Counted from the stretch's first letter, positions 7,751-54,048 are shown. The stretch is 64,000 bases of DNA from Chloroflexota bacterium (GCA_965208775.1 OZ242360.1:2589404-2653403), one strand, 5' to 3'. Translations and numbers: made by a program. The notes: generated from the letters alone by a model not told the origin.

Positions 7751-8410
7751 TCCCTTCCTCCCTCGAGCTGCTCGCTAGTTCGGTGCCGTAATGCCGTTGC
7801 ACGCGTGCACGGCGATCGCGTGGACACCGCCATTCAGCTGCCATCAAATGGGCGCCTCGAAGTATGAGGTCCCCAAGGCTATCCGAACCGACAGCTGCCG
7901 GGAACAGGCTGCCGACGAGCGAGTTTAGAAGGCTAATGGGATTGAGGCATTGAAGTACCCGAAGGTACAGGTTCAGTGTTGCAATGAGGAGTCCGGCTGC
8001 AGAACGGGCTGAAGGATTGACCGGAAGTGATGGCTCACGCCTGCGCGGCACGTACAGCGAAGCCAGAAACGGGAATCAGTACTCTCTCCAGTGAGTTTCC
8101 AATGACCCGAAACAAGCGAACTGCCGCGGGTCGTTTGGAGTCTCTACAGCCCGATTCGCCTTTTCCGTTCTTTACGATTTTCGGAGTGCAGAACTTGCAC
8201 GCAGGGATTGGGGGTAGGTGGTGTTCGTTGCACAATCAGTGGGCATTGTCGTGCGCAGATTTTCGAGTTCCCAGGAGCCGCCTTCCGTCCGAGCGACGAC
8301 GAGCCTCACTATGAGTTCTACTCATCTCTCACGGTTCAGGCGTGCGCAACGTCAGGTCTGCTCAACTACTTCGCGAACTCAACTCATAGGGTCGAGCCGA
8401 GTTTCGCTGG

Positions 8411-10244: not shown

Positions 10245-10388
10245 CGGCGGTGGAACCGGGCGACGATGAGTGCGGGCTTCCTCCCGCCTTGCCGGTACAT
10301 TTTTACTCCGCCGTTTACACTGCGAAAAGGCAGCCGGCTGAGCGGCGTATTGATGGAGCCAAGAGTGGTGTGACTGCTTCGCAGCGGA

Positions 10389-11828: not shown

Positions 11829-11911
11829 CGGGGCGGTAGAGACGACCGTAGATCCATCCGTACTCCCCGGCCTGCTCTTCCTGCCGGCCGAGTTGGTCGC
11901 GCTCGCCGGCG

Positions 11912-12379
11912 TTGCGAGAGACCGACCACCGCGTCGCGCTGGCACAAGGCCTCGTCGTCGGACCGGCGATCTGGGGCGTCGTCGTCAACCTCGCGATGTA
12001 CGCGCTCCCGGGAATCCCCGGCGCGATCACCGGCTGGATAGTTGTGCTGGCGCTAGCCGCGGTTCTGATATGGCGCACTCCGAAATCGGTCCGCCCGCGG
12101 CTGCGCACGGCGGCGGTCATTATCGCCGAGCTCATAAGGATGAGATTGGGCGGGACCCCGTACCAGGTTGTCGACGGGAGACTAAGCTGTCTCCATCTGC
12201 CGGGGCACCCTTCAATCCGAGGACGACCGATGCAACTTCAGATCCCGTTGCTCACCGAACCTTCGCCTAGGCGATCGACATTCAGCAGACGTAGGCGCCT
12301 GTTTCGAAGCGCTGCTTGCGTAGCCGACGATGCCGATCGATCCAGACCAGGTCAAGCGACGCTATCGCTCGCTTGCTAA
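11912..12379 (+). CDS. Small membrane protein (hypothetical)
   Basis: 155 aa with 2-3 hydrophobic segments, directly after the 479-aa membrane protein gene. Weak. Confidence 0.25.
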   Translation: MRETDHRVALAQGLVVGPAIWGVVVNLAMYALPGIPGAITGWIVVLALAAVLIWRTPKSVRPRLRTAAVIIAELIRMRLGGTPYQVVDGRLSCLHLPGHPSIRGRPMQLQIPLLTEPSPRRSTFSRRRRLFRSAACVADDADRSRPGQATLSLAC

Positions 12380-35498: not shown

Positions 35499-35755
35499 TA
35501 GAAGCCCAGTGGCCTGTCCGGGATGGACAGCCGCTCGAACTCCTGGTCGTCCTGTGGGATTTCAAGGAGCAGTTCACCGAGCGTCGCAGCGTTGGACCTC
35601 TCCAGGTTACAAAGTCGCTCGTACTCCTCCGTCGCCAACACGACCACCGCGGGCTGCCCCCGCCGGGTAACCAGCTGGGGTTCGCCCGCCACGGCGGCGC
35701 TGACCAGCGCACTGAATTTGTTCTTCGCGTCCTGTAGGGGCCACTCCGCCATCAC
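35498..35755 (-). CDS. vapB: Phd/YefM-fold antitoxin paired with VapC
   Basis: 85 aa, N-terminal W.L.DAKNKFSALV..A..G.PQ.VTRRG.PAVVVL is the Phd/YefM signature. Translationally coupled to vapC. Confidence 0.75.
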   Translation of the reverse strand: MMAEWPLQDAKNKFSALVSAAVAGEPQLVTRRGQPAVVVLATEEYERLCNLERSNAATLGELLLEIPQDDQEFERLSIPDRPLGF

Positions 35756-36263
35756 GACCTCCGGCTAGCTATCCTAGCTAGATTTTACCGCAGCTCGACA
35801 TCCGATGACTCCGGTAGCAAGTTACCGATCCCTTCTTAAGGGTCAGGCTTCACGATCCGAGCTCAGGTGTGGCCAGGCGACGCTCACGGATCAACCGTTG
35901 CTCGACAGCTTCGTCTGGTGGGCACAGCTTGACTGAGATATGCTACCGGCGTCCAAGCCGCCGGTACTTCTACTGGCACTCCACGCGAGACGTGACTTCG
36001 CGTCCTCTCGCGGTCTGCCAGAAGTGGCGGCTTGGACACCGATCACGTCTCACATGCTGCGAGGGGACACCCATGCCGCCGTTGATCCAGAGCCCTGCTC
36101 GATTGGGCCAACGGGTGGATGCAAGCAACACGAAGCTCGGCTGCCTGACTCCCCTTAAGCCGCGCTTCTTCGTACACAAGGCGTCCTGGCACGAGGCGAG
36201 CAACTCCGACGTGCACTCTCTGGAGTCCGAAGGCCCTGGACCACCTCTCCCGAATGCCACGCC

Positions 36264-37238
36264 ATGAAGGCTATGGACGCGGCCGCGATCGTCCTCAGAG
36301 ACGCCGACGAGCCGCTGCACTATCGCGAGATCACGCAGCGGATGCTTTCGCGAAAGCTATGGACCACCGAAGGGAAGACGCCCTGGGACACCGTAAGGAA
36401 GCAGCTGGCCGAGCACATCAGGACCCGGGGCTCCGCATCCCGCTTCGTCAAACACGGTCCCGGCGTGTTCGCGCTGAGCACGAATGTAGTTGCCGCCAAC
36501 CTGTCCTTTACGGATGCGGCAGAACAGATCCTGAGCCAGTGCACGGAGCAGCAGCCGCTGCACTACACGGAGATCACGCGACGCGCGCTCGAACGCGGTC
36601 TGATTCGCACGCAGGGTCGCACGCCGGCTGCGACGATGTACTCGGGGATCTTGACCGAGATCCGGAGCCGCGCGACACGCGGCGACTCACAGCGCTTCGT
36701 TAGACACGGTCGCGGCATGTTCGGCTTGGCTGCCTGGCTGCCCGTCGGGGTGGCCGGGCAGATCGAGAAACAGAACCGAGAAGTCCGAAGGTTGTTGCTC
36801 GAACGCGCGCGCACCGCTTCCCCTACCGACTTCGAAAACCTGGTAGGCGAGCTACTCGTGGCGATGGGATTTGAGGACGTCGAAGTCACGAAAACGTCCG
36901 GGGACGGCGGCATCGACGTTCGTGGAACACTCGTGGTGGCCGACGCGGTCCGCATCCGCATGGCGGTGCAGGCCAAGCGCTGGAAACGGAACGTCCCGGC
37001 GCCGGTCGTCCAACAGCTTCGCGGTTCGTTGGGAGCGCACGACCAAGGACTCATCATCACGACCAGCGATTTCAGCCGGGGAGCGACGAGAGAAGCAAAC
37101 CGTTCCGACGCCGCACCAGTCGCACTCATGAGCGGAGAGCAGATCGCCGCGCTACTGGCCGAGAACCAGATTGGTGCGCGTGTCACGAGCTACGATCTGT
37201 ACACACTTGACCCCACAGAAAGTCCAAGCAGTCAATGA
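36264..37238 (+). CDS. mrr: Mrr-like type IV (modification-dependent) restriction endonuclease with two N-terminal winged-helix (HARE-HTH-like) modules
   Basis: C-terminal Mrr_cat block FENLVGELLVAMGFEDVEVTKTSGDGGIDVRG...VQAKRWKRNV..PVVQQLRGSL (PD-(D/E)xK). Two repeated ~100-aa N-terminal modules (PLHYREITQRML / PLHYTEITRRAL). Confidence 0.75.
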   Translation: MKAMDAAAIVLRDADEPLHYREITQRMLSRKLWTTEGKTPWDTVRKQLAEHIRTRGSASRFVKHGPGVFALSTNVVAANLSFTDAAEQILSQCTEQQPLHYTEITRRALERGLIRTQGRTPAATMYSGILTEIRSRATRGDSQRFVRHGRGMFGLAAWLPVGVAGQIEKQNREVRRLLLERARTASPTDFENLVGELLVAMGFEDVEVTKTSGDGGIDVRGTLVVADAVRIRMAVQAKRWKRNVPAPVVQQLRGSLGAHDQGLIITTSDFSRGATREANRSDAAPVALMSGEQIAALLAENQIGARVTSYDLYTLDPTESPSSQ

Positions 37239-37483
37239 GGTGTCGCCCCCACAGGCCCCTCGGGCACTTCGTAGGCGACCTCCAGCAGCTTGTCGAGCTC
37301 CTCGTCGGGCATTGAGTACTCTTCGCAGTAGCCGCGAGCAATGATCGACTGAAATCTGAACGGCTGGTGCAGAACGCCGTTGTCCAGCACTCGGGCGTTT
37401 CCCGTCTCGGGATCAAAGCCGTCCTTTTCGACGAGCAGATAGACACCCCGCCCTCGGGTAGCGATGACCTTGTAGTCGCTCAA
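37232..37483 (-). CDS. Small hypothetical protein (83 aa)
   Basis: Coding-like ORF, convergent with and slightly overlapping the mrr end. No motif. Confidence 0.25.
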   Translation of the reverse strand: MSDYKVIATRGRGVYLLVEKDGFDPETGNARVLDNGVLHQPFRFQSIIARGYCEEYSMPDEELDKLLEVAYEVPEGPVGATPH

Positions 37484-38170
37484 CAGACAAACCTCCTGTA
37501 GTGACCCAGCCTAAGCTAAGCCGCCCTCTGGCGGAAGGCAGCCGGGGCGCATGTGCGGTAAGTCAAGGGGGCTCGATACACCGATCTTCCTACATCCGAT
37601 CGCACACGGTGCCGACGGGCATGCCAACGCCGATTCCATTGATCTCCACGACCGTGTAAATGCTCAAGGCACCGACTTCAACACTCGCCTCCACTTATCG
37701 CGAATCCGCGCCTGCACGAGGGTCATGATTCACGCGCGACCGATTGACAGGCTTCGCCGGACTCTGCAGAGCGCTCTATTTATCGATCCGAACTTTAGTG
37801 TTAGACAGTGCCCGGAGAGGTTCGCGGGTGTGCCGCGCCATGACCGAGTTGGACACATCCCGGACGATCTTGCCTGGCCTGACCACCTTCGAGCGGAAAA
37901 GGGATTTAAGTCCGCGCTCGCCCCTGCGGGCGTTCGCAGCCAACTCCGGATCAGAAACCGTCTCGTCGGTGGCCGGATCGTCGAGCACCCAGTCCTCAAT
38001 TGTCTCGGCCTCGCAAAGGCAGTTCCATGAGACGACTCTATGTTCGAGCCCGGCATCGATTGCTGCGGCGGTTTCGGGATAGATTCCGGAGGCTGACAGG
38101 GTCTCGGAGTCGGCCGGCGAGGTTACACTGCGGTCCGCTCAAGGAAACGGTCACACCGCACAACGTCCGT

Positions 38171-39820
38171 TCACCGCGAGAGGATTTCATCCAAAATCTG
38201 GTCGTACAGTTGCTTGGCAGCAAACGCCTCGCCCATGGACTCGACGGCCTCGCAGCGCGCTTCGAGGACGATCTGGCGGACCATGCGCTCGGCGAGATGA
38301 AGGATGTTCTTTTCGATTCGCTCGATGGCATCCCGCTCGTCGAGAGAACAGGCGGACTCGCGGTTTTGCGGGCAGATACGATCATCGAAGTATGCCTGCA
38401 ACGGTTCGCGCTTCTCAGACAGCGTGTCGAACGACCGGACGAGATTGCGGAGTTTGGTGCGGCAGAAATCCAGGTATCCGGGGCACTCGATTGGGACCAT
38501 CTCGTGGCCTCGGAAATGAGCTGTCGAAATACTCTCCGCTGCGGCGGCGACGCCCTCGGCCGCGGTGACGGCATCCTCGGCGAGGCGCCGCCAGCGGATT
38601 CGAGCCTGTTCCCCCGCGTCGCTCTCCGATCCGCCCAAGGCCGAGAACCGGAGATCTTGCAACAGCATTGTCCGGTACGTTTGCAGGCGGCGCGCCGTGC
38701 GGTTGTCGTGCACAGACCACACTTCGGGATCTTGCAACGGTTCGATCGGCTCCGCCCAGCAGCCCGCCAGAGCGACATCGCGTCCCTGGCTCTTGAGCCA
38801 GTCGTTCCAGGAGGAAACGCGGAAGCCGTGTTCGGTCAAGGCATCGAGGCGGACGCCGAGTGTGCGTGCGCGCCAACGCTGATAGAGGGAGAGATTGACA
38901 TAAGGTCGACGGCCAAAGCGGCGGCACCTGCCGCGATAGGAGCGAACGCGGTCGGTTGCGGCCTGGCGGGCGTCATGCCAGGAAGCGTCGTCGACCGGCG
39001 AGGGTCTTCCCTCGGGGTCGGCTTGGACGAAGTGTTGAAAGGCGAGCGGGTGAGAGTCGTCCGTGGCCTGGGGAGTCCAGCCGCGGTCATTGAGGATGAC
39101 GCCGAACTCGGCCAGTTCGAGGACAGTGCGATCCACCCAGCGGCCATCGAGGAGTGGCGCGTTGCGGAGGAACGGGATCGGCACGGCGGGTAGAGAGACG
39201 AGCTTTCCCGCGGGAACTTCCTTGGAGCGAACGAGGCGTCGGAATTCTCGCTTGATCGTCGAGGAGATTCTGGTCCGCCGCTCGCGCAAATCCTCGTCGC
39301 CGCTGTGCCGGAGCGCCGAGCAGTCCCACTCCCGGAAGGTGCTCGGATCGTCGAGAGAGACCCAGGATTGGATTTGGTTCATGAGAGCCGCCTCGACGGC
39401 TGCGGCGGTGTGGGAATCGAGCGGATATGCGAACCAGTTTGTTACGCTGGACAGCTCATCGTGGATGCAGAGGCGGCGAAACTCGCTGTAGAGGAGATTG
39501 ATGTTTCGTTCCGCCATCTGGAGCTCCTGCCAGATAAGTTCTTTCAGCTTGAGATACATCCTCCACAGGAAGAGGACCTCGCGCTCGGCCTCGTCAGCTT
39601 GTATATCTATCGCTTCTCGTGGGAGACCCTGCATGGATTTTTCGGCCGCTCGTCGCGCCTGCTCACTCAATCGATTGAGCGGCGGATCGGGCGGCTTCAG
39701 GCTCTCCAGGTACTCATTGGTAGAACGAAACCGGGCCATTCTCTGGAGCTCGCGGAGGACGATATCGGTGGGCGAGAGACAGTCTTCCAGGTCCTTGAGG
39801 GTCTTGCCGCGTGAGCTCAC
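38171..39820 (-). CDS. Hypothetical 549-aa protein, last gene of the HTH-STAND / ParB-MTase operon
   Basis: Long coding-like ORF. Its start overlaps the stop of the upstream 151-aa gene by 4 nt (translational coupling). No domain recognised. Confidence 0.45.
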   Translation of the reverse strand: MSSRGKTLKDLEDCLSPTDIVLRELQRMARFRSTNEYLESLKPPDPPLNRLSEQARRAAEKSMQGLPREAIDIQADEAEREVLFLWRMYLKLKELIWQELQMAERNINLLYSEFRRLCIHDELSSVTNWFAYPLDSHTAAAVEAALMNQIQSWVSLDDPSTFREWDCSALRHSGDEDLRERRTRISSTIKREFRRLVRSKEVPAGKLVSLPAVPIPFLRNAPLLDGRWVDRTVLELAEFGVILNDRGWTPQATDDSHPLAFQHFVQADPEGRPSPVDDASWHDARQAATDRVRSYRGRCRRFGRRPYVNLSLYQRWRARTLGVRLDALTEHGFRVSSWNDWLKSQGRDVALAGCWAEPIEPLQDPEVWSVHDNRTARRLQTYRTMLLQDLRFSALGGSESDAGEQARIRWRRLAEDAVTAAEGVAAAAESISTAHFRGHEMVPIECPGYLDFCRTKLRNLVRSFDTLSEKREPLQAYFDDRICPQNRESACSLDERDAIERIEKNILHLAERMVRQIVLEARCEAVESMGEAFAAKQLYDQILDEILSR

Positions 39821-40272
39821 TGTCGTGAAGGCTCCAAGGGGAGTTCGACTTTGGGCAGGTCGTCATCGAAGGACGAGTCAAGATCACCGGCGGCGACGGC
39901 GGCCTTGACGTCGGCGAGGTCTTGGGCGAGGTTGCCAGTTTCCATCAATTCGCGAGCCTCGCGCACGACCCGGAGCAAGGCGTTGGTGCGGGCGATGGAG
40001 GGCTTCATGCCGAGGAGATCCTTGGTGGTGATGTCGAGGAGTCGGGAGATGCCGCCGGTCGAGTCGAGGCTCTCGGGGAGGTCGTAGGCGCCCTCGATGG
40101 CCTTCTCGCGGCGGCGGCGCCGGCCGCCGAGTCGCCTGGCCTCGGCGGCCTCCGCCTCGTAATCGGGGTGGTGCCAGAAGCAGAACGGCTCGCCGCCCAT
40201 GGGGCTGAAGCCGCAGGGCGAGCCGCCGGCGTTGCTGGCAGTACAGGAGCGTTTGCGAGCGCGGTCTAGCAT
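39817..40272 (-). CDS. Small Cys/His-rich protein (putative zinc-binding), 151 aa
   Basis: N-terminal C-x9-C-x10-C-x2-HH cluster (CTASNAGGSPCGFSPMGGEPFCFWHH). Overlaps both neighbours by 4-7 nt. Confidence 0.4.
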   Translation of the reverse strand: MLDRARKRSCTASNAGGSPCGFSPMGGEPFCFWHHPDYEAEAAEARRLGGRRRRREKAIEGAYDLPESLDSTGGISRLLDITTKDLLGMKPSIARTNALLRVVREARELMETGNLAQDLADVKAAVAAGDLDSSFDDDLPKVELPLEPSRQ

Positions 40273-41561
40273 TTGCGGGCTCCTTGGTTCTCGAATTGAT
40301 TCGCGTCGTTCTGCCGGTAAGCCGTGCCTCCCGTGAACGCCTCCCAGCGCTTGACCGCGACGTCCACGTACGAAGGCTCTCGCTCGATAGCGAAGCAGAC
40401 GCGGCCCGTGCGTTCGGCCGCGATGATCTGAGTGCCGGAGCCCGAGAACGGCTCATAGACGATGTCTCCCGGCTCGGTGTGGTACTCGATTGGGCGGATG
40501 AACAGCTCCACCGGTTTCTGGGTGGGATGGATGCCGAAGCTCTCGAAGCGCTGGTCCACGTTCCATATGGTGGAGACGTTGCTCGGCGGCTTTCGTTTCG
40601 GCATCTTGCCCTCCACCCAGCCCACAAAGCAGGGCTCGTGCTGCCAGAGGAAGAACGAGTGGGTCAGCACGCCCCGAGCCTTCATCCAGATGACCTGCTG
40701 GTGGACCAGGAGACCTGCTTTCTTCCAGGCTTCCTCCACGAGCGCCTGCCGGCGGTGGGCATGCCATTGATATACAGCGGAGTGCGAGACGAGATGGGCG
40801 AGACCGGCGGACAGAAACTTGAAGAAGAAGTCCACCGACGACTCCGGGTCGTGGTAGTCGTCCCAGTGCTTGTCGCGGTTCGCATCGCCCTTGTTCGACT
40901 TGCTGGCCGGATGCTGGCCCCCTGAGTAATCGACGAGATAGGGCGGATCGGTGGCCATGAGTGAGGCCCGCTTCTCTCCGAACAGGCTCCCCACGTCGGC
41001 CACGTCGGTCGAATCGCCGCACAGCAGCCTGTGATCGCCCAGGCACCAGACATCGCCGGGTTGCGTGACCGGGTCGGACTGCGCGTCTTTGAAGGCGGCA
41101 TCCGGATCGAAGTGCTCGATGCGCTCGCGCTTATCCTGGGCGTCGAGCGACTTGAGCAGCTTGGCCACCTCGTCATCGTCGAAGCCAGAGAGCGAGACGT
41201 CGATATCGGGAGTAGCGTCCAACTCCGACAACAGTCGAGCCAGCAACTCACTGTCCCACGACCCCGAGATCTTGTTGAGGGCCAGATTCAGCAACCGAGC
41301 CTGGTCGCCAGACAGATCCAGCAAGATCACCGGGACCGAGGCCAGTCCCAACCTGCGAGCGGCGACCAAGCGTTGGTGCCCGCCGATGACTTTTTTGTCC
41401 TCGCGACGCGCGATGACCGGATCGACGAAGCCGAACTGCCGCATGGAGCGCGTGAGCGAGTCCAGTTCGGCGTCCGAGACGCGTCTGGGGTTGGCGGGAT
41501 CGGGATGCAGGTCGTCGATCGGGAGGTGGACGACAGAGAGTCTCCTGTCAGCGAGTTTCAC
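40266..41561 (-). CDS. ParB-like nuclease domain fused to an N6A/N4C DNA methyltransferase
   Basis: N-terminal ParBc signature (LHPDPANPRR...GGHQRLVAARRLG), C-terminal MTase motif IV DPPY (LMATDPPYLVDYSG) and an AdoMet motif-I-like segment near the C-terminus (EPFSGSGT). Confidence 0.8.
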   Translation of the reverse strand: MKLADRRLSVVHLPIDDLHPDPANPRRVSDAELDSLTRSMRQFGFVDPVIARREDKKVIGGHQRLVAARRLGLASVPVILLDLSGDQARLLNLALNKISGSWDSELLARLLSELDATPDIDVSLSGFDDDEVAKLLKSLDAQDKRERIEHFDPDAAFKDAQSDPVTQPGDVWCLGDHRLLCGDSTDVADVGSLFGEKRASLMATDPPYLVDYSGGQHPASKSNKGDANRDKHWDDYHDPESSVDFFFKFLSAGLAHLVSHSAVYQWHAHRRQALVEEAWKKAGLLVHQQVIWMKARGVLTHSFFLWQHEPCFVGWVEGKMPKRKPPSNVSTIWNVDQRFESFGIHPTQKPVELFIRPIEYHTEPGDIVYEPFSGSGTQIIAAERTGRVCFAIEREPSYVDVAVKRWEAFTGGTAYRQNDANQFENQGARKC

Positions 41562-41732
41562 GGAAAATCTCCTTTACGGCTTGCGAGTAGCAGCGCCCAG
41601 GACGGGCTCGAACTCCGGGGTTTCGGGTCTGTGCATCGCCGGCCGCTGCTCTTGCAGCTGTCCGGCTCGCCACCGCGCTGATGACATCGTGCCTCGGGGA
41701 CCATGGACGCAGATCAACTCTCGGCCGCTCGG

Positions 41733-44700
41733 CTACAGAGACCACTGTGCCTCTCGCTCCTCGTCCTGCTTTCGCGCCGCATCGATTTGCTGGTCGAGTC
41801 TGCGGAGCATGGTTCTGGCCCAGCGGCGCACCTTCGGCCGTTTGTGTTGCAGCAATTCCTGCAGCGGCTGCTTGTAGCACGCGAAATAGGTTGTCTTCGA
41901 CCCTCTCCACCCGAAATTGTGGATGTTGGTGTCCACGCCTTGCAGCACATCGTCGCGGTCTCCGAACTCGTCGAGAAGTCTGACGATGATCGGATGCAGC
42001 GAGGGGTTCCCAGTTGCGTCTGCTCCAGGAGTCAGGACAGGCACGTGCTCCGCCACGAAAGCCGGCGCATGATCGGGGTTGCCGTGACACCAGCCGACGA
42101 GAGCAGACTCAGGGAGACTGAGCAGCGGCGCGTTCCTATCCGGCAGCGAGTACGAATGTCCGAGGATGAGGCCCAGATGCCAGGCTCGCCGGCGGTCAGA
42201 GACGATAGCCTGCCCTATGATCGGCCACGAGACCTCCGGAAGGTCCGAGAGTATCCGGGGAAGGACCGGCTGGAGAAGGACCTGGTGCTCGATTCCTTCG
42301 GCCTTCACCACGGCCTTGGCCAAGGCTATTGCAGCGGCCCATGCATCGGTATCCTGCTTGCCTTTGCGGAGCAGCCAGCCGACGACAAGCCGGAAAGAGT
42401 CCTTGCATTCACCGTGGGTTCCGGGAACCTTCCACCTGGAGGAATGCTCCGCCAGCATAAGGACCTGAGGCCGTAAGTCTTCGAGCCTGTCGCGATCGTG
42501 ATGGCTGAACCTCTCCATCAGGTGCGCTGCTACAGCAAACCCTTCTGGGCTGTGGACGAGCAAAGTGTCGAACAACGCTGCGAGGTGCTGCGGGGGAACA
42601 TCAGCCAGCTTCTGACCGAATGACCAGGCATTCAATAGAGAAGGATTCAACAGGCCGTCTTCAAGTGAGCCGATTACCAGTTGAATGTCGTCTGGAGTGA
42701 TACCGAGCCGCCAGCAAAGCCAGGGAAGCGCGGGTGCAAGCTCAGTCGAGCGAGCAGCCTTCCGCTTGAATGCATCCACCTTTTCGAAATTGTCGTGTGC
42801 CAGACCGACGGCGAAGCCCGTTAGCAGATCGTGGTTGCGTTCCTCCACGGGCGCTGCTTCGACGGCCTTAACGATTGGTTCGAGCCACTCGAGCGGCGAC
42901 TGAGCCAATTCGGCGATCGCCGTTCCAAATGCCTGGGACATCGCGTGCCGGCCGCGGCTGAGTTGGGGCAAGTGCTGTATGAGCACCTTTGGCCGCTTTG
43001 CTAACCACTCGGCCAAGCGGCGCACCTCTTGAACTCGAAGTTCGAAACGCGAGTCGGAATCCAATTCGCTACCTCCAGGGCCGTCCCACGAGACCTCGGT
43101 CACGAGAGAGCGTATGCGTGCCTCCGGACTCTTCGGCTGCAATACCGCGGCCAGCTGCTTTATCCGCGCGGAGATCTCAGGATCGAGGTCCTCCGCGTAG
43201 ACGTCGTTCAGCCTCCATAGGCATTTCAATGCCTCGGGCCAGTAATCCACAGCGTTCCCCACCTGGCGCACGACCTTTGCGACCGCGTCGATAAAGCCCG
43301 CTTGGACCAGGCGAAACAGCTCGTCGCCGAGCAGCGAGCGCGCCCCGAGGCTAGGCTCATCATCCTTCAGGGCGAGTCGGGCCAGGCGCAGCGCACACTC
43401 CTCGACGTATCTGTGCACGTCGCCTCCAGTAGCGGGCTGCCAAGGCGTCAACGCCGGGCGAGGACCCTGTGCCTCGGGCCTCCCCATTTGCCAGAGGTAG
43501 CTAGTCTGAAGGCCGGTTGCCAGAGCCTGGGCAACAATCTCGCGCTCAATCGGGTTGTTGAAGTCCGGAACCTCATCTAGGAATAGCAGCCGCTCGTTGC
43601 CATCCGCCTCGGTTCCACCCAGGTGTATCGAGAAGAGTCTGCAGAACGTTTTGGCGGCCTGCTTGAGTCGTCCGAACTCGCGGCTTACGGTGCTCCGCGA
43701 CTGCAGCTCATCCGCGGTAGCCAGACGGAGCAGATGACGCGCCCCGTCGTGGAAATGTGTCCGATGGGAGGCGATCTTCTCCAATGCCCATACGAGTTGG
43801 CGCCGTACGTCGTCCGTAAGAGTCGACAGGTCTTCGACCTGCGCGATTGAGTCGTTGATCCGTGACAGGACGACAGCCGGGTGGATCTCGGCCAGGGACG
43901 ACAGCACCCTCGCGTGGCCGTCCTGCGAAATGCCGTCGATGCCGTCGAATGGCCCTTCCTGGCGACAGACCTGCGCTGTCACCTCTTGGGCGATGTCGGT
44001 GCCGTCAAGACGTGCGAGTTGCTCGGCAGCCGAGAGCTTCAGGGGGGTGCTGGCGTCGCCGGAGAGCACGCGGTCCCACGTGTCCGGGGACCACTCTCGC
44101 CACTGGCGCTCCGCCAGTTTCATGGCAATGGGGAGAGGCTTGAGGGTGACGAGGTCTCCGTGCCGCTGTGCCACACCGCCGTCGACAACCTGCATGACCG
44201 CGGCATGAAAATCCCGGTAGGCCAATGCACCGTCCAACTTGGCGATCTCGCACAGTTGACCGTCCCTCCGAGGCTCGATCCTCACCAGGCCGAAGACAGC
44301 CAGCAGAGCTGCGGACTTCGTCATCGAACCTCGATCCCGACATGTGCGTCCGGCAACGTAGGCGTCGACCAGCTGATCGCTCGTAGCGTCGACGACAGAT
44401 ATCGATGCATTCCAGGCCTGTGCAAGCCGTACCGCCATTTCCGGGAAGCCAGCGGACAGGTGAGTAAGCCGAATCCGGTCACCGTCCGGTAGGCTCGGCA
44501 CCAGTGCGCGAAGGATGCCCTCGGTGACCGACGGATCCGCCTCCCCGATCTTGTGAGCATTGCCGCCGAGCGCTCCGGTGGGAACCTCGTTGTCGATAGT
44601 CACCATCGACAGACGGCTCCGCCGGTGAAGTGCGATTCTGGCGAGGACTTGATGCGTCTCAGGATCGCAGTCGTCAATGACGACCACGGCACGGGTGCCG

Positions 44701-45755
44701 GCGTCCGCCAGGATCTGGACGACCCTGCTTATGTACCGGGAGCCGGCTTCCGACCGAACCGTGTACATCACGCTGTGGTGGAGATCCAGACCTCCGTCAG
44801 GCCCCAGGGCCTCAAGCGTGAGGCGCGACTTACCCACGCCGTAGAGGCCGACGATCCGGATGACGGTACGCGGCTCCGTAACGTGCTCGCGCAGGTGATT
44901 GCATAAGGCCCCCAAGCGTTCATCCTGCACCCAGGGCGAAGCGTAGTGCTCGGAGCGCTCGGCCCAGTGGCTCCAAGTCCGAAACGGCCCCATGGTTCCG
45001 GGTTGGGTCCGTTCCTTCAGCCATGTTGCGACAGCGGGGTGATGGTTCACCCAGCCGGCGATCTGATCCGCGTCTCGAAAGGCGACTTGGTCTCTATCGA
45101 GGACCAGACCCGCCGATGCAAGTGCCTTACGAATCCTGGATTCTCGCTTTTCGATTTGGTTCTGTGTGTAGGGCTGCGCGCAGATCAGTATGTAGCTGCC
45201 ACCCGCGGCGAGGGCCGTCCTCACCCAATCCTTCACGGCACCGTCGCTGTTAAGGACCGCCCTAGCCGCAGCGGCCGGCGATATGTTTCCGGATTTCAAC
45301 TGGAACAGATTGGGCCCAGAGGGAAGGAACTGTGTCGAATCCGGACCTGCATTCCACTCGATGCGTCCGTCCTCTCGTCCGTCAGGTGCCTGAAAATTGC
45401 TGGCGACCTGTCGTCGATCGAGGGGGAGGCCGTGTTCCCACTCTTCAGCATGGAGCAAGAGCCTCAACAATTCTGGAAGGAGTGTTTCTGCAAGAGCCGA
45501 GACATTGGCGCCGGTCACATCGAACGGCGAGGCTGCTCCGAATAGTCTGGGGTGAGACGCCCGTCCTCGCAGACTGGCCAGTGCCGTTGGATTGGCTTCC
45601 AAGAGCTTCAGCAGATGGAACACGGAAGCGTTTGGCGTGACGGTTCCGGCCTCGTACTTGGTAAATGCACGCGGTCCGCCGCCAATCAGTTCACCCGCCT
45701 CGACCTGCGACAGGCCGAGCCGTTGTCGAACACTGCGAATTTCTTCAGGAGTCAT
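41733..45755 (-). CDS. 1340-aa protein: N-terminal XRE-type HTH + STAND/NB-ARC-like P-loop NTPase + long helical C-terminal region
   Basis: HTH_XRE (RQRLGLSQVEAGELIGGGPRAFTKYEAG). Walker A IVGLYGVGKSRLTLEAL ~350 aa in, Walker B VVVIDDCD, followed by ~850 aa predicted helical repeats. Confidence 0.7.
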   Translation of the reverse strand: MTPEEIRSVRQRLGLSQVEAGELIGGGPRAFTKYEAGTVTPNASVFHLLKLLEANPTALASLRGRASHPRLFGAASPFDVTGANVSALAETLLPELLRLLLHAEEWEHGLPLDRRQVASNFQAPDGREDGRIEWNAGPDSTQFLPSGPNLFQLKSGNISPAAAARAVLNSDGAVKDWVRTALAAGGSYILICAQPYTQNQIEKRESRIRKALASAGLVLDRDQVAFRDADQIAGWVNHHPAVATWLKERTQPGTMGPFRTWSHWAERSEHYASPWVQDERLGALCNHLREHVTEPRTVIRIVGLYGVGKSRLTLEALGPDGGLDLHHSVMYTVRSEAGSRYISRVVQILADAGTRAVVVIDDCDPETHQVLARIALHRRSRLSMVTIDNEVPTGALGGNAHKIGEADPSVTEGILRALVPSLPDGDRIRLTHLSAGFPEMAVRLAQAWNASISVVDATSDQLVDAYVAGRTCRDRGSMTKSAALLAVFGLVRIEPRRDGQLCEIAKLDGALAYRDFHAAVMQVVDGGVAQRHGDLVTLKPLPIAMKLAERQWREWSPDTWDRVLSGDASTPLKLSAAEQLARLDGTDIAQEVTAQVCRQEGPFDGIDGISQDGHARVLSSLAEIHPAVVLSRINDSIAQVEDLSTLTDDVRRQLVWALEKIASHRTHFHDGARHLLRLATADELQSRSTVSREFGRLKQAAKTFCRLFSIHLGGTEADGNERLLFLDEVPDFNNPIEREIVAQALATGLQTSYLWQMGRPEAQGPRPALTPWQPATGGDVHRYVEECALRLARLALKDDEPSLGARSLLGDELFRLVQAGFIDAVAKVVRQVGNAVDYWPEALKCLWRLNDVYAEDLDPEISARIKQLAAVLQPKSPEARIRSLVTEVSWDGPGGSELDSDSRFELRVQEVRRLAEWLAKRPKVLIQHLPQLSRGRHAMSQAFGTAIAELAQSPLEWLEPIVKAVEAAPVEERNHDLLTGFAVGLAHDNFEKVDAFKRKAARSTELAPALPWLCWRLGITPDDIQLVIGSLEDGLLNPSLLNAWSFGQKLADVPPQHLAALFDTLLVHSPEGFAVAAHLMERFSHHDRDRLEDLRPQVLMLAEHSSRWKVPGTHGECKDSFRLVVGWLLRKGKQDTDAWAAAIALAKAVVKAEGIEHQVLLQPVLPRILSDLPEVSWPIIGQAIVSDRRRAWHLGLILGHSYSLPDRNAPLLSLPESALVGWCHGNPDHAPAFVAEHVPVLTPGADATGNPSLHPIIVRLLDEFGDRDDVLQGVDTNIHNFGWRGSKTTYFACYKQPLQELLQHKRPKVRRWARTMLRRLDQQIDAARKQDEEREAQWSL

Positions 45756-46675
45756 GAGAAACTTTCCTCAGGATTGCTGTGACCTCAAGTGAATTATACT
45801 GAATTATATCCCATTGAAGGCGGTTTGATAGCTAGTGGAAAAAATACACCATTAAGATCGGACTGGAAGCTAAACTTGGAACGGACAGCCGTTCGCGCCG
45901 CCTGGCTCTGATCGAGTCAGCGTTTCGGCCTAGGGCGACCTGCTCGGTTTCGGGCGTGCAGTCAGTAGTCGGACAGCGATGGAACGTGTCTGCAGAACTG
46001 ATCAAATAGGAGAGTTAGAGAATGGCGACATGGTACGGATGGCAACGGGGCGTGCAGCGCGCAGTCTTGGTCAGCAGACGCGATCGGGTTTCTGATGGAA
46101 GTATTGAGGGCCGATACCGGCTAACAGCCGTCGAGCTTACTTAAGGTGAGTGTTCGGGTACTAGCAACCGTTACCAAACGTTACCTTTGGTAGCAAAAAA
46201 AGATCTCCTATGGGATTTCTGACAGGGAAAAAAGATTTTCGGGCGGATTTGACGCGATTCGGCCATCGGGGAGGCGCACGAGGACGACAGGATCGTATGT
46301 CGAGCCCCAAGGTCACCAGCTCCACGATCCCCGCGAACATGCGGTTTGTAGCGCGTCTCATCGAAACTGGCCGCAACCCGATCCATGTTCAATCAATCTC
46401 TCTAACTCACCGTGTGGCGCGACGGGTGCGAACCGTGCGGTGATGAGGGCGTCGTCGCCGGGACCGAAAAACTCGACGGCAAGCGGCGGCGCTTATATAT
46501 AGAAAGTAATCATCAGTAGAAGCGCTCTCTGAAAGGTGTCGTCGGAAGCCCGGAGCGGGTCTTGGGAGCTGACCTGCTGGGCTCGATCCGCCAAGGACCT
46601 AGTTTGGAAACTGGAGCTAGGAGTGGGGCGCCCGGAGTTGAAGTTCGAGACGGTCCGGGGCGCGAGAATTAGGCG

Positions 46676-48283
46676 TCAGACGGCGAAGATTCTCTGGAGT
46701 GTGTAGCAGAAGCTGGCAGCGATGCGGGTGGCAGTCGCCTCAGCACTAGGGAACCTGTAATCGATGACGACCTCGACCCGCTTGGGCCCGTTATCGGGCT
46801 TGGTCGTGTGGACCGTGATGCGGCGCACCAGCAGCTTAACGATCTCGTGTCGTTCCTCGTCCGAGAGGTCCTGAGCGAGGCGTTCACGCAGCTCCGCCAG
46901 CACCTCCTCCGAGAGAGCAACGTCAGGAGAGTCCCGTTCGGCATCCAGATCGGCCAGCCGCGCATCCAGCGAGTTGAGTTCCTCATCCACCTCGGCGGCG
47001 ATGGAGTCGAACTCGGGCTGGGAGATCATGGCGCGGACGTAGAGGTCGATGGCGCGCTTGCGGCGGTCCTGGACTGCCGAGCGGGCTTCCAGGAGCGAGT
47101 CACGTTCAGGCTGAGCGACAGAGCAGTCCTCCAACTTCCCGTTCTCGACCGCAAGCTCGTCGACGAGAGGCTGGGGATCGGTGAGGAAGCGGCAGACATC
47201 CGACCAGACGACGGCCTCCAACCTGTCGCCCTTGATGGAAGCGCCGATGCACTTACCCGGGAAGGGGCCGCGTTCGACCATGGCGCCGTTGCAGCGATAG
47301 CGCGGCTTGGACCTGGCCCAGGTACCGCAGAAGGACAGGCCGCATACGGCGCAGCGGATGAGGGAGCGGAGGAGGTAGAAGCGGCGGGAAGAGGTCGCCG
47401 AGATGCGGTTGCGCTTGAGAGCGGCGATCGCGGCGTCCCAGGTTTCCTCAGAGACCAGGGCGGGCACAGAGGCCGAGATCACCTCCCTGCCATTGGGACG
47501 AGTCGATCGACGTCCGAACTGGAGGACGCCCTTGTAGACCGTGTTGTGGACGAGGTTGCGGATGTGGCCCGACCGCCAGAGGCCCTGTGTGCGCTTACCG
47601 CGAACGCCACGGCCAGCGCGGCGATACGAAGTGGGGATGCCCAGCGAGTTGAACTCGTCCGCGATCCGCCTGCAGCTCCAGCCGTCCGACGCGAGGTGGT
47701 CATAGATCCGTCTAATCACGTCAGCCGCAGACAAGTCCCCCCACATGATGGAGTCGTCCGGCACGAGATACTTGGCGCCCCTATCGCCCGAGACCCGGTA
47801 GCCAAGCGGGACGATCCCACCCGTATAGCGCCCCTCACGCGCCGCCCGGTTCATACCTTCTGCTGAGCGTTCGAGGAACTTACGCCGCTCATTGGCGGCG
47901 ATGACAGCATGGATATCGAAGTAGAACGGGTCGTCGATATTCTCGTCCGTAGCACGTAAAGAGACGCCGATCGACTCGAACACCCTCCAGATGCGGAGGA
48001 GTTCGAAGGCGTCGCGCCCCAGGCGATCCGAGCGGACCACCCAAAGCTGGGAGAAGCGGCCCGCGCCGGCATCACGTACCAGAGCGGCGCCCATAGGTCG
48101 CTGTTCCAGGGGGATCGTCCCCGACACCCCATCGTCCTCGTAATTGCGGAACACGACGACACCAGACTCAGAAGCCAGGCGGCGAGACAGCGCCGCGCGC
48201 TGGTTGAGGACCGTATGGCGGTCGCGCTGTTCGTCAGACGAGACGCGGGCATAGGTAGCGATGCGGACCATTGGACTGGTCAT
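46676..48283 (-). mobile_element. Large serine recombinase (resolvase-domain + recombinase + zinc-ribbon type)
   Basis: IATYARVSSDEQ catalytic Ser motif, GRYTGGIVPLGYR recombinase domain, C-terminal CxxC...C and a coiled-coil. Confidence 0.85.
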
Positions 48284-48514
48284 ATGACCTCCCTAGGTAA
48301 GGGGTAAAGGAGCGGTACCTATGAACGCTCTGGAGGCCGAATAGATCAAGGCGGACCGGCGTCCCGCGGGAGTGATGCCATAGCAACGACGCCGATCCGT
48401 CCGAAGGGCGGGGCACCCCCCTGGATGCGCGCAGACGTGGAAGAAGGCTGCGCAGCCACCCCGCCGGAACAGATTCTAGACTTGCGAGACCAGGACTCGA
48501 AGAGGCGGGACCTG

Positions 48515-49522
48515 CTAGCTCAAGCCGAGGACGGTGGCGACACCCTGCCAAGCGACGTCGCGCTGCCCCTCCAGCCTGCGGAGATAGGTGGTGGTGACCG
48601 CCAGCGAGCTGTGGTCGAGGAACTGGCTGACCGACTCCACCGACTCGCCCACGTCCCGGCGCAGCTTGGCGGCGGTGTGGCGGAGGACGTGAAGGCCCGA
48701 GGGAGGCAGACCGGCCAGACGGAGGTAGGTACGGAATCGGTTGTAGAAGGTAGAGGCCGTTACTCCCGAAGGACCAGCAGCCGCCTGCCAGAGCGACTCG
48801 CTGGGCTGCATCGACGAAAGGTCCTTGCCGACATCACTAAGCGAGCGCTGAATGGCGACCAGGGCTGGAGTGGGTAGTTCACGCCTGCCCCGCACGCCGC
48901 CCTTACCGATGTAGCGATAGAAGACAGCCGAGTCATCGAAGGAGACATCGCCGACCTTGAGGTTAATCACCTCCGACCTGCGTCTGGCCGTAAGAATGAG
49001 AGTGATGACGATCGCGCGGTCCCGCCTGCCCTTCACGGTGTCCGGTATGGCCCCAAGGAGCAACTGCACCTGGGAAGCGGTTAAGCCTCTAGGGGCGCTG
49101 GGTTGAATCTTGGGGCGTTCGACGGGATCGCAGGGATTGGATTTGAGGACATCCAGCCTGATGAGGAACTTGTAGAACGAAGAGATACAGCAGATACGAC
49201 CACTGACGGTAGAGGGAGACGGCTCACGACCAGACAGGCCTATGCCATGGGCGAAGGAAAAGACATCCTGAGCAGACACCTGATCCGGCGACTTCTGGGT
49301 AGAGCCGAAGAAATGGCGGAGAATGCGGTAGTAAGAGTCAGGGGTTCGCAGAGAACCGGAGCGGCGTTGCTTCTCGGCCAGGAAGGCATAGAGCGAGGCA
49401 TCCCAGCCCGACGCAGAGCCGGAGAAGACAGTGGGGAGAGTGGTTGGACCGGCGGTCATGGTGGTCTCCTTGAAGATGGAGAAGTTCCGCATGACGATTG
49501 CTCTGGTTGGCAGAATGATCAA
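48515..49522 (-). mobile_element. Tyrosine recombinase / phage-type integrase (XerC/D-like)
   Basis: Box I/II: RRSEV, LRHTAAKLRR, DHSSLAVTTTYL (catalytic R..HxxR..Y). Divergent from hsdM. Confidence 0.85.
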
Positions 49523-49626
49523 GCACTATGTGTGAATAGGAATGAGCCGTTGCAGACGCTCGGAGCACAGCCAAGACGCCGTCAATCACTCAGTGACTCA
49601 CGGAGCGACACTGTTATAATGCAGAT

Positions 49627-51467
<1,841 letters not shown>

Positions 51468-51471
<4 letters not shown>

Positions 51472-52805
51472 ACAGTGCATGGACATGGCGTCCCCTTGGA
51501 GAGTTGTTCGAGATCGGCGCGGGCAAGACGATGTCCGCCGCCGCGCGTCGGGGCCCCGACAAGACGCCTTTTCTTCGAACGTCGAACGTCCTCTGGGACG
51601 AGATTGACCTGTCGACCGTCGATGAGATGTCCATCCCGGAGCGCGAGTTGCCCGCCAAGCTGTTAACGCGAGGCGACCTGCTCGTCTGCGAGGGCGGCGA
51701 GATAGGACGTGCGGCAATCTGGGATGGTCAGATCGAACCGATGTCGTTCCAGAACCACCTGCATCGGCTGCGGCCAATCGATTCGAACGTCGAGCCGCGC
51801 TTTTACGTGTTCTTCCTGCAATCGGGTTTCACGCAGCTAGGCATCTTCGAAGGCGCAGGCAACAGAACGACGATCCCCAACCTGTCCCGTAGCCGCTTGG
51901 CGGGGCTGGACGTGCCTCAGCCCCCGTTAGCTGAGCAACAGGCAATCAGCGCGGCGCTCAATACGGTGCGCGACGCACTCAAAGTACAGGACCGGAGTAT
52001 CGAGATCTCACAAGACTTGAAACGCACCGCCATGCAGGCCCTCTTCGCCCGCGGCCTGCGCGGCGAACCTCAAAAGCACACCGACATCGGCCCCATCCCG
52101 GAGAGTTGGGAAGAGGCAACGCTAGGAGAATTGTGTGACATCACTAGTGGGGGGACTCCTCGGAAATCAGTCGCCGGGTTTTGGGGGGGAGTCATCCCTT
52201 GGGTCTCCGGCAAGGACCTGAAATGGCCTGTACTACATGATGCAATTGACCACGTTACGGATGAAGGAGTCCGAGCAGGTAGTCGATTGGCCTCCAAAGG
52301 ATCTGTCTTGTTGCTGGTTCGAGGAATGGGGCTGGCGAAGGACCTTCCAGTCGCCGTGATTAGTCGGCCAATGGCATTCAATCAGGATATAAAGGCACTC
52401 CTCCCTCGCGGCGAATGTCCGGGAAGCTTCTTGAGATCGGCGATCTACGCCGGTAAACAGCGGATGCTAAATCAGGTCGTGACGTCCGCACATGGGACGA
52501 TGACATTGAACCTCCATGATGTGCGGAACTTCAGAATCGCATGTCCGTCCGACCCGACCGAGTCCAACGAGATCGTTGCGATCCTCGACACGATCGACCG
52601 CAAGATAGACCTCCACCGCCGCAAGCGCGCCACCCTCGACGACCTCTTCAAATCCCTCCTCCACAGGTTTATGACGGGTGAGCTCAGTGTGATCGAACTG
52701 GATTTGACCGCGATTCCCACTCTAGGTCCAAAGGACGGAGGCGGAATCACTGAACCAATCATTGAAAAAGGAGAATTTGATGACATCCACCGGTATTCCC
52801 ATTGA
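51468..52805 (+). CDS. hsdS: Type I R-M specificity subunit HsdS (two TRDs)
   Basis: Starts in an ATGA overlap with hsdM. Central and distal conserved helices ([18 protein letters not shown]... and [22 protein letters not shown]). Confidence 0.85.
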
Positions 52806-53337
52806 GAGATTTCTCTTCGGGAATGAACATTGGAGATCCAACCGCGCCATAGACGAGATATGCGTTTACAGCGACTTGCTAGAAGAACTGCAAGACACGA
52901 TAGATGCTTTGGAAGTGCGCGGCAAAGATGAAGAGACTGCATTGGTCAACGCACAGGCAGTCATAAGTAGCTATGCGGTTGAAATCGCTATGAAATCCCT
53001 CTGGGCATTGGACAACTCTCCTGCAACCGTACCCCGTGGACGTCAGGGACATAACCTGCTCAGGATGTTCGACCGTCTGAAGCAAGAGACAGTGGAATCG
53101 CTTGGGCGACTTCAGCTGACCAGGACAGTCCTCGAAGAATGCCCTTCACCTTTCCCTAGTAACAGATACTCGATGGAATGCGGCAGTAGAGACATCGTGG
53201 TCTACGATGCGGGGTTCCTTAGGCAGCTTGCACAGGTGCTTAGAGAGAAGCTGGATCAAACGAGGACGCAATCACTCTCCCCCACCGCAAACGCGCCATC
53301 CTCGACGAACTCTTCAAGCCCCTCCTCCACAAGCTAA
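52762..53337 (+). CDS. Small helical protein inserted after hsdS; possible HEPN-like (RGRQGH, Rx4H) protein
   Basis: 191-aa ORF whose last ~25 codons (..APSSTNSSSPSSTS) are an off-frame reading of a duplicated hsdS 3' tail, so the real C-terminus is uncertain. The Rx4H motif alone is weak evidence. Confidence 0.35.
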   Translation: MKKENLMTSTGIPIERFLFGNEHWRSNRAIDEICVYSDLLEELQDTIDALEVRGKDEETALVNAQAVISSYAVEIAMKSLWALDNSPATVPRGRQGHNLLRMFDRLKQETVESLGRLQLTRTVLEECPSPFPSNRYSMECGSRDIVVYDAGFLRQLAQVLREKLDQTRTQSLSPTANAPSSTNSSSPSSTS

Positions 53338-53415
53338 TGACCGGCGAAATCCGCGTTGATGATCTCGACTTGCACGTGATCAAGCAACCGCTTCACCTCG
53401 ATGGAGAGATCCCTT
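53242..53415 (+). repeat. Second copy of the hsdS 3' conserved tail (gene-fragment remnant; frame-0 segment ...HRKRAILDELFKPLLHKLMTGEIRVDDLDL...)
   Basis: Direct nucleotide repeat of 52604-52690 (caccgcaaacgcgccatcctcgacgaactcttcaagcccctcctccacaagctaatgaccgg). Preceded by stops in frame and has no start codon. Confidence 0.7.
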
Positions 53416-53485
53416 GAGTGTGAAAGCCACCGCCCATTTGCCCACCTCCGCCGAAGCCAAATGCCAATGAAGATAAGGAGAACAG

Positions 53486-53947
53486 ATGATCGACCCGAAT
53501 TCTAGGGCAGCCGGCTCGACCGACGACGACAAGCAGGTCTTTACATTGCCACTTGGCGACGATGTGGATAGGCAACTCTACGCACTTGAGAAAGCACAGA
53601 AGGCTGTGTATGCGTTAGCCACAAAGCAAGGAGACCTCAAGGACCGGCTTGCTGAAGCCTTCACTGAACTCATTCGAATTGATGTATCGGCTGTTCCTGC
53701 TCACCTCCAGTCCGACTACAAGTGGATCAAGAACTCTCTGACAAGCAAGTCTGCCAAGCAACGCGCTTTTGCCCAGGGTAGATGGGTTGAAGGTGTCGAA
53801 GGTCGAATCGGCGCAACTCTGGCGTATATGCGACGGAAGAAGACGGAGGAAATAGCCGACCGCATCACCCAATTCGCGTCTCAACTAGAGGACGCAGTAA
53901 GCGCACCATCCTTGACGACCCCTTCAAGTCCCTCCTCCACAAGCTAA
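53486..53947 (+). CDS. Small hypothetical protein (153 aa) between hsdS-tail copies 2 and 3
   Basis: Coding-like, helical. The C-terminus (..APSLTTPSSPSSTS) again runs into an off-frame hsdS-tail repeat. Confidence 0.3.
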   Translation: MIDPNSRAAGSTDDDKQVFTLPLGDDVDRQLYALEKAQKAVYALATKQGDLKDRLAEAFTELIRIDVSAVPAHLQSDYKWIKNSLTSKSAKQRAFAQGRWVEGVEGRIGATLAYMRRKKTEEIADRITQFASQLEDAVSAPSLTTPSSPSSTS

Positions 53948-54048
53948 TGACCGGTGAGATACGGGCAGAAGAGCATGACCTCTCAGCAATCGGAAGACCA
54001 GCCGGCCGTAAGCTCGGTGAGATGAGACGACCACGCATATGTCAATAG
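53890..54048 (+). repeat. Third copy of the hsdS 3' conserved tail (frame-1 open segment ...KRTILDDPFKSLLHKLMTGEIRAEEHDL...), ending 10 nt into the helicase gene
   Basis: Direct repeat (aagcgcaccatccttgacgaccccttcaagtccctcctccacaagctaatgaccggtgag). No start codon. Confidence 0.7.

Follow-up and report, generated by a model that had tools for sequence, protein, structure and literature searches.

The stretch considered here, 64,000 nucleotides of a Chloroflexota bacterium (GCA_965208775.1 OZ242360.1:2589404-2653403; hereafter the window, at its full length), is overall a large defence island with McrBC, SIR2, Fic, a type I CRISPR-Cas system with Cas3, Mrr and type I restriction-modification (R-M) genes. 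Within it, four minus-strand genes follow one another: a gene for a 1340-residue STAND NTPase with an N-terminal helix-turn-helix (HTH), and a trio that encodes a ParB-methyltransferase fusion of 431 residues and two proteins of 151 and 549 residues, p151 and p549. An earlier note on this DNA, made from the sequence alone, correctly placed the block between an Mrr gene and two recombinase genes inside the island (Table 1). All four open reading frames (ORFs) are intact in the ORF listing of the window, which together with the junction sequences bears out the 4-7-nt overlaps described in that note. The methylase gene is coupled to the p151 gene by the 7-nt overlap ATGCTAG, which lies 8 nt downstream of an AAGGAG ribosome-binding site, and the p151 gene to the p549 gene by the 4-nt overlap GTGA; both junctions were read directly from the sequence. 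The 7-nt and 4-nt overlaps recur at homologous loci, and as the 4-nt overlap is also present in at least 30 metagenome loci, these junctions are not a matter of chance. The 1340-residue gene is separated from the methylase gene by a gap of 171 nt.

Homologue contexts and a reference-genome scan, confirmed by tblastn, showed that the window and 10 other distinct loci, 9 of them chromosomal and the tenth on contig L004, share one gene order: tyrosine recombinase, large serine recombinase, slot 1, ParB-methyltransferase, p151 (~150 residues), p549 (~550 residues) and slot 2. The serine recombinase was present in this order in 9 island copies, and a single 3.8-Mb Chloroflexota chromosome, OZ253578.1, carries eight copies of the island. 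Slot 1 is variable and spans 1.7-5 kb. In the window and in locus L024 it contains the Avs8-like STAND gene, and elsewhere DUF4276+AAA_21, NYN+M78, an XRE repressor and M78 peptidase pair, a PARIS-like fusion or unknown genes; in 9 of the 10 other distinct loci it is filled by genes other than Avs8. Slot 2 contains GmrSD, SIR2, Mrr, type I R-M, HSDR_N or a second p549 copy. This fixed order with varying slots identifies the three-gene block as the conserved unit and the STAND gene as cargo. The earlier suggestion that the four genes form one operon or module is therefore not sustained, as the STAND gene sits in a variable slot and its HTH-bearing homologues also occur without the trio elsewhere; what is conserved in other genomes is the trio, mostly without Avs8, rather than the four-gene block. 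We consider it probable (roughly 0.6) that the block comprises two independent units, an Avs8-type sensor carried as cargo and a methylase-led trio around which a family of integrative elements is built.

DNA homology between the copies extends from 49540, 18 bp upstream of the tyrosine recombinase gene, to ~100 bp after the p549 stop codon (38074). Median pairwise protein identity among island copies is 92% for the ParB-methyltransferase, 88% for the tyrosine recombinase, 86% for the serine recombinase, 68% for p151 and 57% for p549, so that p151 and p549 diverge much faster than the methylase, whose copies are 83-99% identical. The mosaic patterns of identity point to exchange between island copies.

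Table 1. Features of the block and its surroundings, in window positions
Feature	Position	Strand	Basis or remark
HARE-HTH + Mrr_cat type IV restriction gene	36264..37238	+	slot 2; Pfam, tblastn, blastn
Relic of second tandem p549 paralogue, 73 codons	37863..38081	-	profile search, blastn
Conserved stretch directly 3' of p549 stop codon	38074..38170	-	blastn vs L015, L016, L021, L024
p549, helical with central alpha/beta domain, 549 aa	38171..39820	-	third trio gene
p151, CCCH zinc-knuckle + three long helices, 151 aa	39817..40272	-	second trio gene
ParB_N + beta-class N6/N4 DNA methyltransferase, 431 aa	40266..41561	-	first trio gene
HTH-Avs8-like STAND protein, predicted antiviral sensor, 1340 aa	41733..45755	-	cargo, variable slot 1
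Putative nuclease effector region of Avs8-like protein, aa ~78-260	44976..45524	-	within PD-Lambda-4_A match; invariant residues
MqsA/XRE-type HTH of Avs8-like protein, aa 2-63	45567..45752	-	Pfam, PDB
ORF-free conserved segment between serine recombinase gene and slot 1, ~470 bp	46040..46509	n/a	blastn, alignment
Large serine recombinase, 535 aa	46676..48283	-	backbone; Pfam Resolvase, Recombinase, Zn_ribbon_recom
XerC/D-like tyrosine recombinase, 335 aa	48515..49522	-	first backbone gene; Pfam Phage_integrase

An Avs8-like sensor with an additional helix-turn-helix

The 1340-residue protein matches the PADLOC model PD-Lambda-4_A (PDLC03991) with E 9.7e-71 in a single stretch, residues 78-1337 corresponding to profile positions 4-1281 of 1283, and the relationship is distant, with 237 bits over 1260 residues. 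The E. coli system PD-lambda-4 (Vassallo et al. 2022) has since been renamed Avs8, and Avs8A, in which a nuclease of the Mrr family at the N-terminus is combined with a STAND NTPase and a TPR-like sensor, has been reported to bind HK97-fold major capsid proteins and then to degrade double-stranded DNA (bioRxiv 10.1101/2025.07.02.662641, 10.64898/2026.01.04.697583). The partner protein Avs8B is reported to be dispensable for defence, and E. coli Avs8A acts alone (bioRxiv 10.1101/2025.07.02.662641). Judged from its sequence, the 1340-residue gene thus belongs to the known defence family Avs8 (PD-lambda-4A) and is an antiviral STAND sensor of the single-gene kind. The earlier note had seen in this protein both an Avs-type anti-phage sensor and, on account of its HTH, something more regulator-like; the full-length match agrees with the former description and not with the latter.

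In the predicted architecture, an MqsA-type HTH is followed by an effector region of PD-(D/E)xK-like type, then by a P-loop NTPase and finally by a sensor arm of helical repeats. Pfam recognises only the N-terminal HTH (residues 2-63; MqsA_antitoxin PF15731, E 3.8e-13; HTH_31, E 1.6e-7) and has no Mrr_cat match in the protein, and the best PDB sequence match of the HTH is MqsA 3fmy (E 3.4e-9). PF15731 is present in every one of more than 120 full-length homologues, which are ~50% identical. Among 20 aligned homologues the HTH motif GGGPRAFTKYE.G is invariant, as are G303, G306, G308 and K309 of the Walker A motif GLYGVGKS and, within the effector region, D125, E128-D129-G130 and Q152-x-K154; D361 in the Walker B stretch VVVVDDC is nearly so. 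The Walker A motif and XRE-type HTH of the earlier note, as well as the ParB_N and N6_N4_Mtase domains that it assigned to the neighbouring protein, are all confirmed by Pfam and PDB matches.

The full-length, colinear match to Avs8/PD-lambda-4 takes in the N-terminal region of the putative effector, the P-loop STAND NTPase and the long helical arm of the sensor, and the setting in a defence island is likewise shared. It differs in its extra ~65-residue N-terminal MqsA-type HTH, which is conserved across a large subfamily, in its Chloroflexota host and in being only distantly related to the E. coli protein; nor was an Avs8B partner detected, which the PADLOC definition of the system includes in a two-gene operon, as the PD-Lambda-4_B model had no PADLOC match among the three downstream proteins. 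By this comparison the gene is an HTH-fused Chloroflexota variant of a known family. By homology, its C-terminal helical-repeat arm would bind a conserved phage protein, as E. coli Avs8 does with the HK97-fold major capsid protein, oligomerisation dependent on NTP would then switch on the N-terminal PD-(D/E)xK-like nuclease, and degradation of DNA by this predicted nuclease would abort the infection. The additional HTH most likely serves either autoregulation of the gene or tethering of the protein to DNA. A tandem direct repeat, TATAATTCA-G-TATAATTCA, lies on the minus strand at 45790-45815, ~35-60 nt upstream of the start codon of the Avs8-like gene; it may be a -10 element, or an operator to which the HTH of the protein itself would bind.

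Searches returned 606 hits for HTH-Avs8 homologues, compared with 50 for the close p549 family, and one of these homologues belongs to an unrelated defence island, where its neighbours are HsdR, a PIF1-like helicase and a FitAB toxin-antitoxin pair and the trio is absent from the vicinity. Assigning the 'HTH-STAND' protein to the Avs8 family removes a false lead and at the same time reveals a large HTH-fused subfamily.

The methylase-led trio and its wider family

The first gene of the trio encodes a protein with Pfam matches to N6_N4_Mtase (E 1.5e-18, 68.0 bits, cut-off 26.7) and ParB_N (E 3.2e-11, 43.5 bits, cut-off 26.3), a match to phrog_498 (E 5e-121), and PDB matches to CcrM, DpnA and Spo0J/ParB. 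The catalytic TDPPY and the S-adenosylmethionine-binding FSGSGT motifs are both present in its translation in the beta-class order, with DPPY before FxGxG. The methylase itself is ordinary. It shares with the phage orphan ParB_N-methyltransferases of phrog_498 its two-domain architecture, motif order, mobile-element site after replication genes and lack of a recognisable nuclease, and the homologous ParB-methylase gene of bona fide phages is placed after the replication module and before the packaging module. The view of the earlier note that such fusions are mobile-element genes is right. No cognate restriction endonuclease was recognisable in the adjacent p151 or p549 by Pfam, NCBIfam, PADLOC, PHROGs, PDB profiles or Foldseek against the PDB, although a nuclease of novel fold is conceivable. 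Orphan methylases of phages and plasmids protect DNA from restriction (PMC7736820, PMC11541004), and our analysis suggests that the role of this methylase is most likely a protective methylation of the element's own DNA against restriction. M.EcoGIX and M.BceJIII, anti-restriction methylases of plasmid leading regions that are specific for single-stranded DNA (PMC7736820), are functional analogues only. Unlike the phage and plasmid orphan methylases, whose best matches are ~35-41% identical, the methylase here is accompanied by a coupled p151/p549 pair that is absent in phages and plasmids. In several distant members of the module, small proteins with a RAMA (restriction enzyme adenine methylase associated) domain are encoded after the ParB-methylase (L008-L010, L056, L057 and L084) or within the same element (L029).

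Both partner proteins of the methylase belong to large families of uncharacterised proteins. p151 has 141 homologues, in whose alignment the core is nearly invariant: a C-x8-C-x(10-11)-C-x2-H knuckle is followed by EAAEARRLGGLRRRRE...GAYD, the core motif reading ARRLGG..RRRRE...GAYD. An AlphaFold 2 (AF2) model from the family alignment, with a predicted local distance difference test score (pLDDT) of 81, shows a zinc knuckle and three long helices, for which Foldseek found no significant match in the PDB, terminase subunits included. There was no significant match for p151 in Pfam, PHROGs, NCBIfam, PADLOC or PDB sequence profiles, and a literature search for DUF5763 returned nothing relevant. 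The partners had been called unannotatable in the earlier note, which stands for p549 and for p151 itself and is to be qualified by the weak DUF5763 or zf-primase matches of some p151 relatives. In L007, a 700-residue gene call at 10001-12103 resembles a p151-p549 fusion (151+549 residues), which may be an assembly frameshift, as contig coverage is 4x and the methylase gene is split.

For p549 there was no match in Pfam, PHROGs, NCBIfam, PADLOC or PDB sequence profiles, and no significant fold match in the PDB or BFVD (Foldseek). Its AF2 model from the family alignment (pLDDT 66) has an N-terminal helical domain (~residues 1-125), a central alpha/beta domain (~residues 200-340; ~205-335 in the model) and a variable C-terminal helical domain; among the polar residues of the central domain, D230 and E238 are invariant in the family and D255 and H257 nearly so. 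The 50 close homologues are all unannotated, the named ones come from Chloroflexota metagenome-assembled genomes and several lie on one genome-length contig. A profile search returned 1009 cluster representatives at E<=1e-3, a family of ~1,000 clusters at 50% identity, and ten distant members that were scanned had no Pfam or PHROG annotation. The family includes 'mini' relatives of ~265 residues, in which the N- and C-terminal helical parts are kept and the central alpha/beta domain is absent. Tandem duplication of p549 is seen as an intact pair in L005/L018 and, in the window, as a relic that matches profile positions 142-215 (hmmsearch of the six-frame translation, E 7e-23) and, by blastn, internal parts of p549 genes at five loci. 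A large-terminase identity for p549 was considered and rejected, as there is no P-loop and no terminase match and the model is mostly helical.

A relative of p151 is encoded at 284 metagenome loci, and the wider family was sampled at 80 metagenome loci found with the p151 alignment as query. A ParB-methylase lies upstream on the same strand at 25 of the 28 p151 loci with enough upstream sequence, and a p549-family gene downstream at 42 of the 59 with downstream sequence, with the exact 4-nt overlap in at least 30 of these 42; many of these partners are the 'mini' p549. Upstream of the methylase are Prim-Pol/D5, Toprim-AAA_25, DnaG-like or DnaB-type replication proteins and integrases. In the long contigs that were read, the module lies at the end of integrase-bearing elements, with host-like genes following downstream, and no virion or conjugation genes were seen in these elements. 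The neighbours found, among them integrases, primases/helicases and an occasional small terminase, do not include the structural or conjugation genes that the earlier note would have taken as the mark of ordinary mobile-element housekeeping. Terminase_4 (P27-type small terminase) genes adjoin the ParB-methylase in three distant loci (L071, 5527-6051 and 6267-6758; L057, 2577-3050; L084, 182-661), none of which has large terminase or capsid genes, and they provide hints of phage-satellite biology. A tblastn search of 50,697 phage and 72,556 plasmid records matched neither p151 nor p549. In IMG/VR, relatives of p549 were absent and p151 was represented by just two loci, each of the primase and integrase type. 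A search of the literature on ParB-methyltransferase modules found nothing relevant.

In sister copies of the island, the trio is preceded by a strong-looking promoter with TTGACA, a 17-bp spacer and TAGAAT or TACACT (L015, ~8150-8277; L019 and L020, ~8130-8256). This promoter is overlapped by palindromes, such as ACACT-N7-AGTGT, and faces a divergent pair of XRE repressor and M78 peptidase genes. The arrangement, present in sister copies L001 and L003, resembles the ImmR/ImmA switch of ICEBs1 and phage phi105 and the CapH/CapP switch. The window differs in that the switch is missing and the Avs8-like gene takes its position.

Weighing the explanations

The whole region is in our view a defence-laden integrative element. 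The earlier note had offered, as one alternative, the module of a degenerate integrative element; the integrative-element part of this proposal is the better supported alternative, whereas 'degenerate' does not apply, as the trio is intact in every copy. Under the two-unit reading, the methylase would shield the DNA of the element from restriction, as the orphan methylases of phages and plasmids do, and the slots of the island would accumulate defence genes around the conserved backbone. p151, as a presumed nucleic-acid-binding zinc knuckle, and p549, as a helical scaffold with a swappable central domain, may work in a complex with the methylase or downstream of it during induction or establishment of the element, possibly in a fast-evolving anti-defence or helper-interaction function. 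The strictly conserved coupling of translation points to a genuine complex acting together with the orphan methylase. From this coupling, from the co-variation in presence of p151 and p549 and from their fast divergence with tandem duplication, we infer that such a complex acts with the methylase on nucleic acid and is under diversifying pressure.

Several observations weigh against the two-unit reading. There is no terminator-like or promoter-like site in the 171-nt gap 5' of the methylase gene, so that co-transcription of the Avs8-like gene with the trio is possible in the window, and the Avs8-like gene adjoins the trio in three related contigs as well. No replication, transfer or packaging genes were found in the Chloroflexota islands and no convincing att-like repeats bound them, and hence their mobility is deduced from recombinases and copy number only. 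p151 and p549 have no sequence or fold match with known function. The HTH and M78 clue is ambiguous, since such switches also regulate defence operons. Comparison by hhalign of the Avs8-like N-terminus with the Mrr proteins of the island was negative (probability 0.08), and the nuclease fold is accordingly taken from the family match and the published annotation.

That all four genes form one co-operating system, with the trio for example as an accessory, modification or immunity partner of the Avs8-like sensor in the place of Avs8B, we regard as very unlikely. The genes are co-directional across the uninterrupted 171-nt gap, and the arrangement is repeated in L024, whose Avs8-like gene is 73% identical, and in the contigs with P0172/P0054 and P0174/P0009. 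However, slot content changes freely, with other genes in slot 1 of nearly all distinct island loci, the HTH-Avs8 homologues far outnumber the close p549 family and one of them is found without the trio, the window and L024 share no conserved sequence 5' of the methylase gene, and the E. coli protein needs no partner for defence.

A methylation-based defence is an attractive explanation of the trio because type IV nucleases follow it in most copies: Mrr or GmrSD lies directly 3' of the trio in the window, L001, L003/L004, L005, L007, L016, L020 and L022. Such a defence could be R-M-like, with p549 (and p151) as effector, or of a mark-and-cut form, in which the ParB-methyltransferase, targeted by p151/p549, methylates invading or replicating DNA and thereby licenses the neighbouring Mrr or GmrSD. 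The trio is always among defence genes, p549 shows the fast diversification and tandem duplication seen in specificity or sensor components, a CapH/CapP-like HTH and M78 switch lies upstream in some copies, and promiscuous N6-adenine methylation of single-stranded DNA sensitises DNA to Mrr (PMC7736820). This explanation nevertheless appears improbable to us, as p151 and p549 match no PADLOC model and contain no recognisable nuclease, NTPase or other effector domain, and most family members are helices-only 'mini' forms. In the wider family, moreover, the module follows primase/helicase genes in integrase elements, not in defence islands, and eight copies with methylases so closely similar in one genome would be redundant for R-M.

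P4-like and PICI elements (phage-inducible chromosomal islands) are known carriers of defence hotspots, and the islands resemble such satellites in their integrase(s), in the defence-filled variable slots between core genes and in their multiple related copies. The trio could accordingly be a helper-exploitation module, for packaging or late control, of phage satellites, from which the islands would derive as defence carriers; p151 would then act in the manner of a small terminase or of a zinc-finger activator of the Ogr/Delta type, while interference with a helper phage protein would fall to p549. The wider family fits this picture with its integrase and primase/helicase genes, small size and lack of virion genes, and the Terminase_4 genes adjoin the methylase at the three loci given above. 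In phages, small and large terminase genes of similar sizes follow the ParB-methyltransferase gene, and the terminase pair of phage AcaML1 has the same 4-nt overlap. We nevertheless give this possibility a low probability. p151 and p549 resemble no terminase subunit and no viral protein, be it in sequence or in fold, the phage records contain neither of them, IMG/VR is almost empty of both, and no helper phage is known. Integrase with primase/helicase, and sometimes a small terminase gene, is a likeness confined to the wider relatives; the window family differs from satellites in having both a tyrosine and a large serine recombinase, unrelated core genes and no replication or packaging gene. 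In the window no primase or helicase gene lies between the recombinases and the trio, such primase genes are lacking throughout its island family, and no packaging or capsid hijack genes were recognisable.

It is also doubtful that the scaffold of two recombinases, ParB-methylase, p151 and p549 is an undescribed self-propagating platform that captures and shuffles defence genes, with fixed slots, cassettes in both orientations and the eight diverged copies of one genome, in which p151/p549 would be a new methylase-linked machine that might, for example, mark or select DNA for the recombinases or for neighbouring modification-dependent nucleases. As regards an integron-like platform, no cassette repeat family was found around the slots in positions 35500-54000 of the window, and the sequences at the junctions are not the same from one copy to the next. 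The multi-copy, two-recombinase island scaffold as such does appear to be undescribed, having no match in the libraries used and nothing corresponding in literature searches.

On the two-unit reading, a widespread and unannotated three-gene module of ParB-methylase, zinc-knuckle protein and helical protein is defined, which bears on how mobile elements establish themselves or counter restriction. The Chloroflexota islands, with up to eight diverged copies per genome, varied defence cargo and two slots, provide a natural system for studying the assembly and exchange of defence islands in an uncultured phylum.

Flanking sequences and neighbouring genes

The ~470-bp segment between the serine recombinase gene and slot 1 is conserved in eight island copies with 66-84% identity (mean column identity of the alignment 74%), and its position relative to the cargo varies. 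It includes TTGCCAGCAAAGGTAATGTTTGGTAATGGTTGCTAG, which is promoter-like, with direct GGTAATG repeats; a structured RNA was not indicated, with no Rfam match and a positive (unfavourable) covariation term. The segment may act as a promoter/operator, as an origin or as a recombination site. No tRNA gene that could serve as an integration site was found in the window.

At the other end of the island, the HARE-HTH+Mrr gene recurs 3' of the trio in L016, L019, L020, L022 and L004 with 65-76% amino acid identity, its orientation in the window being opposite to that in these five copies, and no inverted repeats flanking the gene were found. An 83-residue ORF without family match at 37232-37483 on the minus strand is conserved beside the trio in L002/L017, in the opposite orientation and with 66% amino acid identity.

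In the type I R-M region, a UvrD-like helicase gene (54039-56012) lies between hsdS and hsdR. A 104-nt direct repeat with 66-75% identity occurs three times (52611-52714, 53277-53380 and 53887-53990), each time at the 3' end of a reading frame, namely hsdS and two small ORFs; silent hsdS cassettes were considered as an explanation and rejected, as by BLASTP the small ORFs are not HsdS fragments. HsdM (49627-51471) carries an N-terminal XRE HTH at residues 12-66, and with the Avs8-like protein this makes two unrelated defence genes of the island that are fused to HTH domains.

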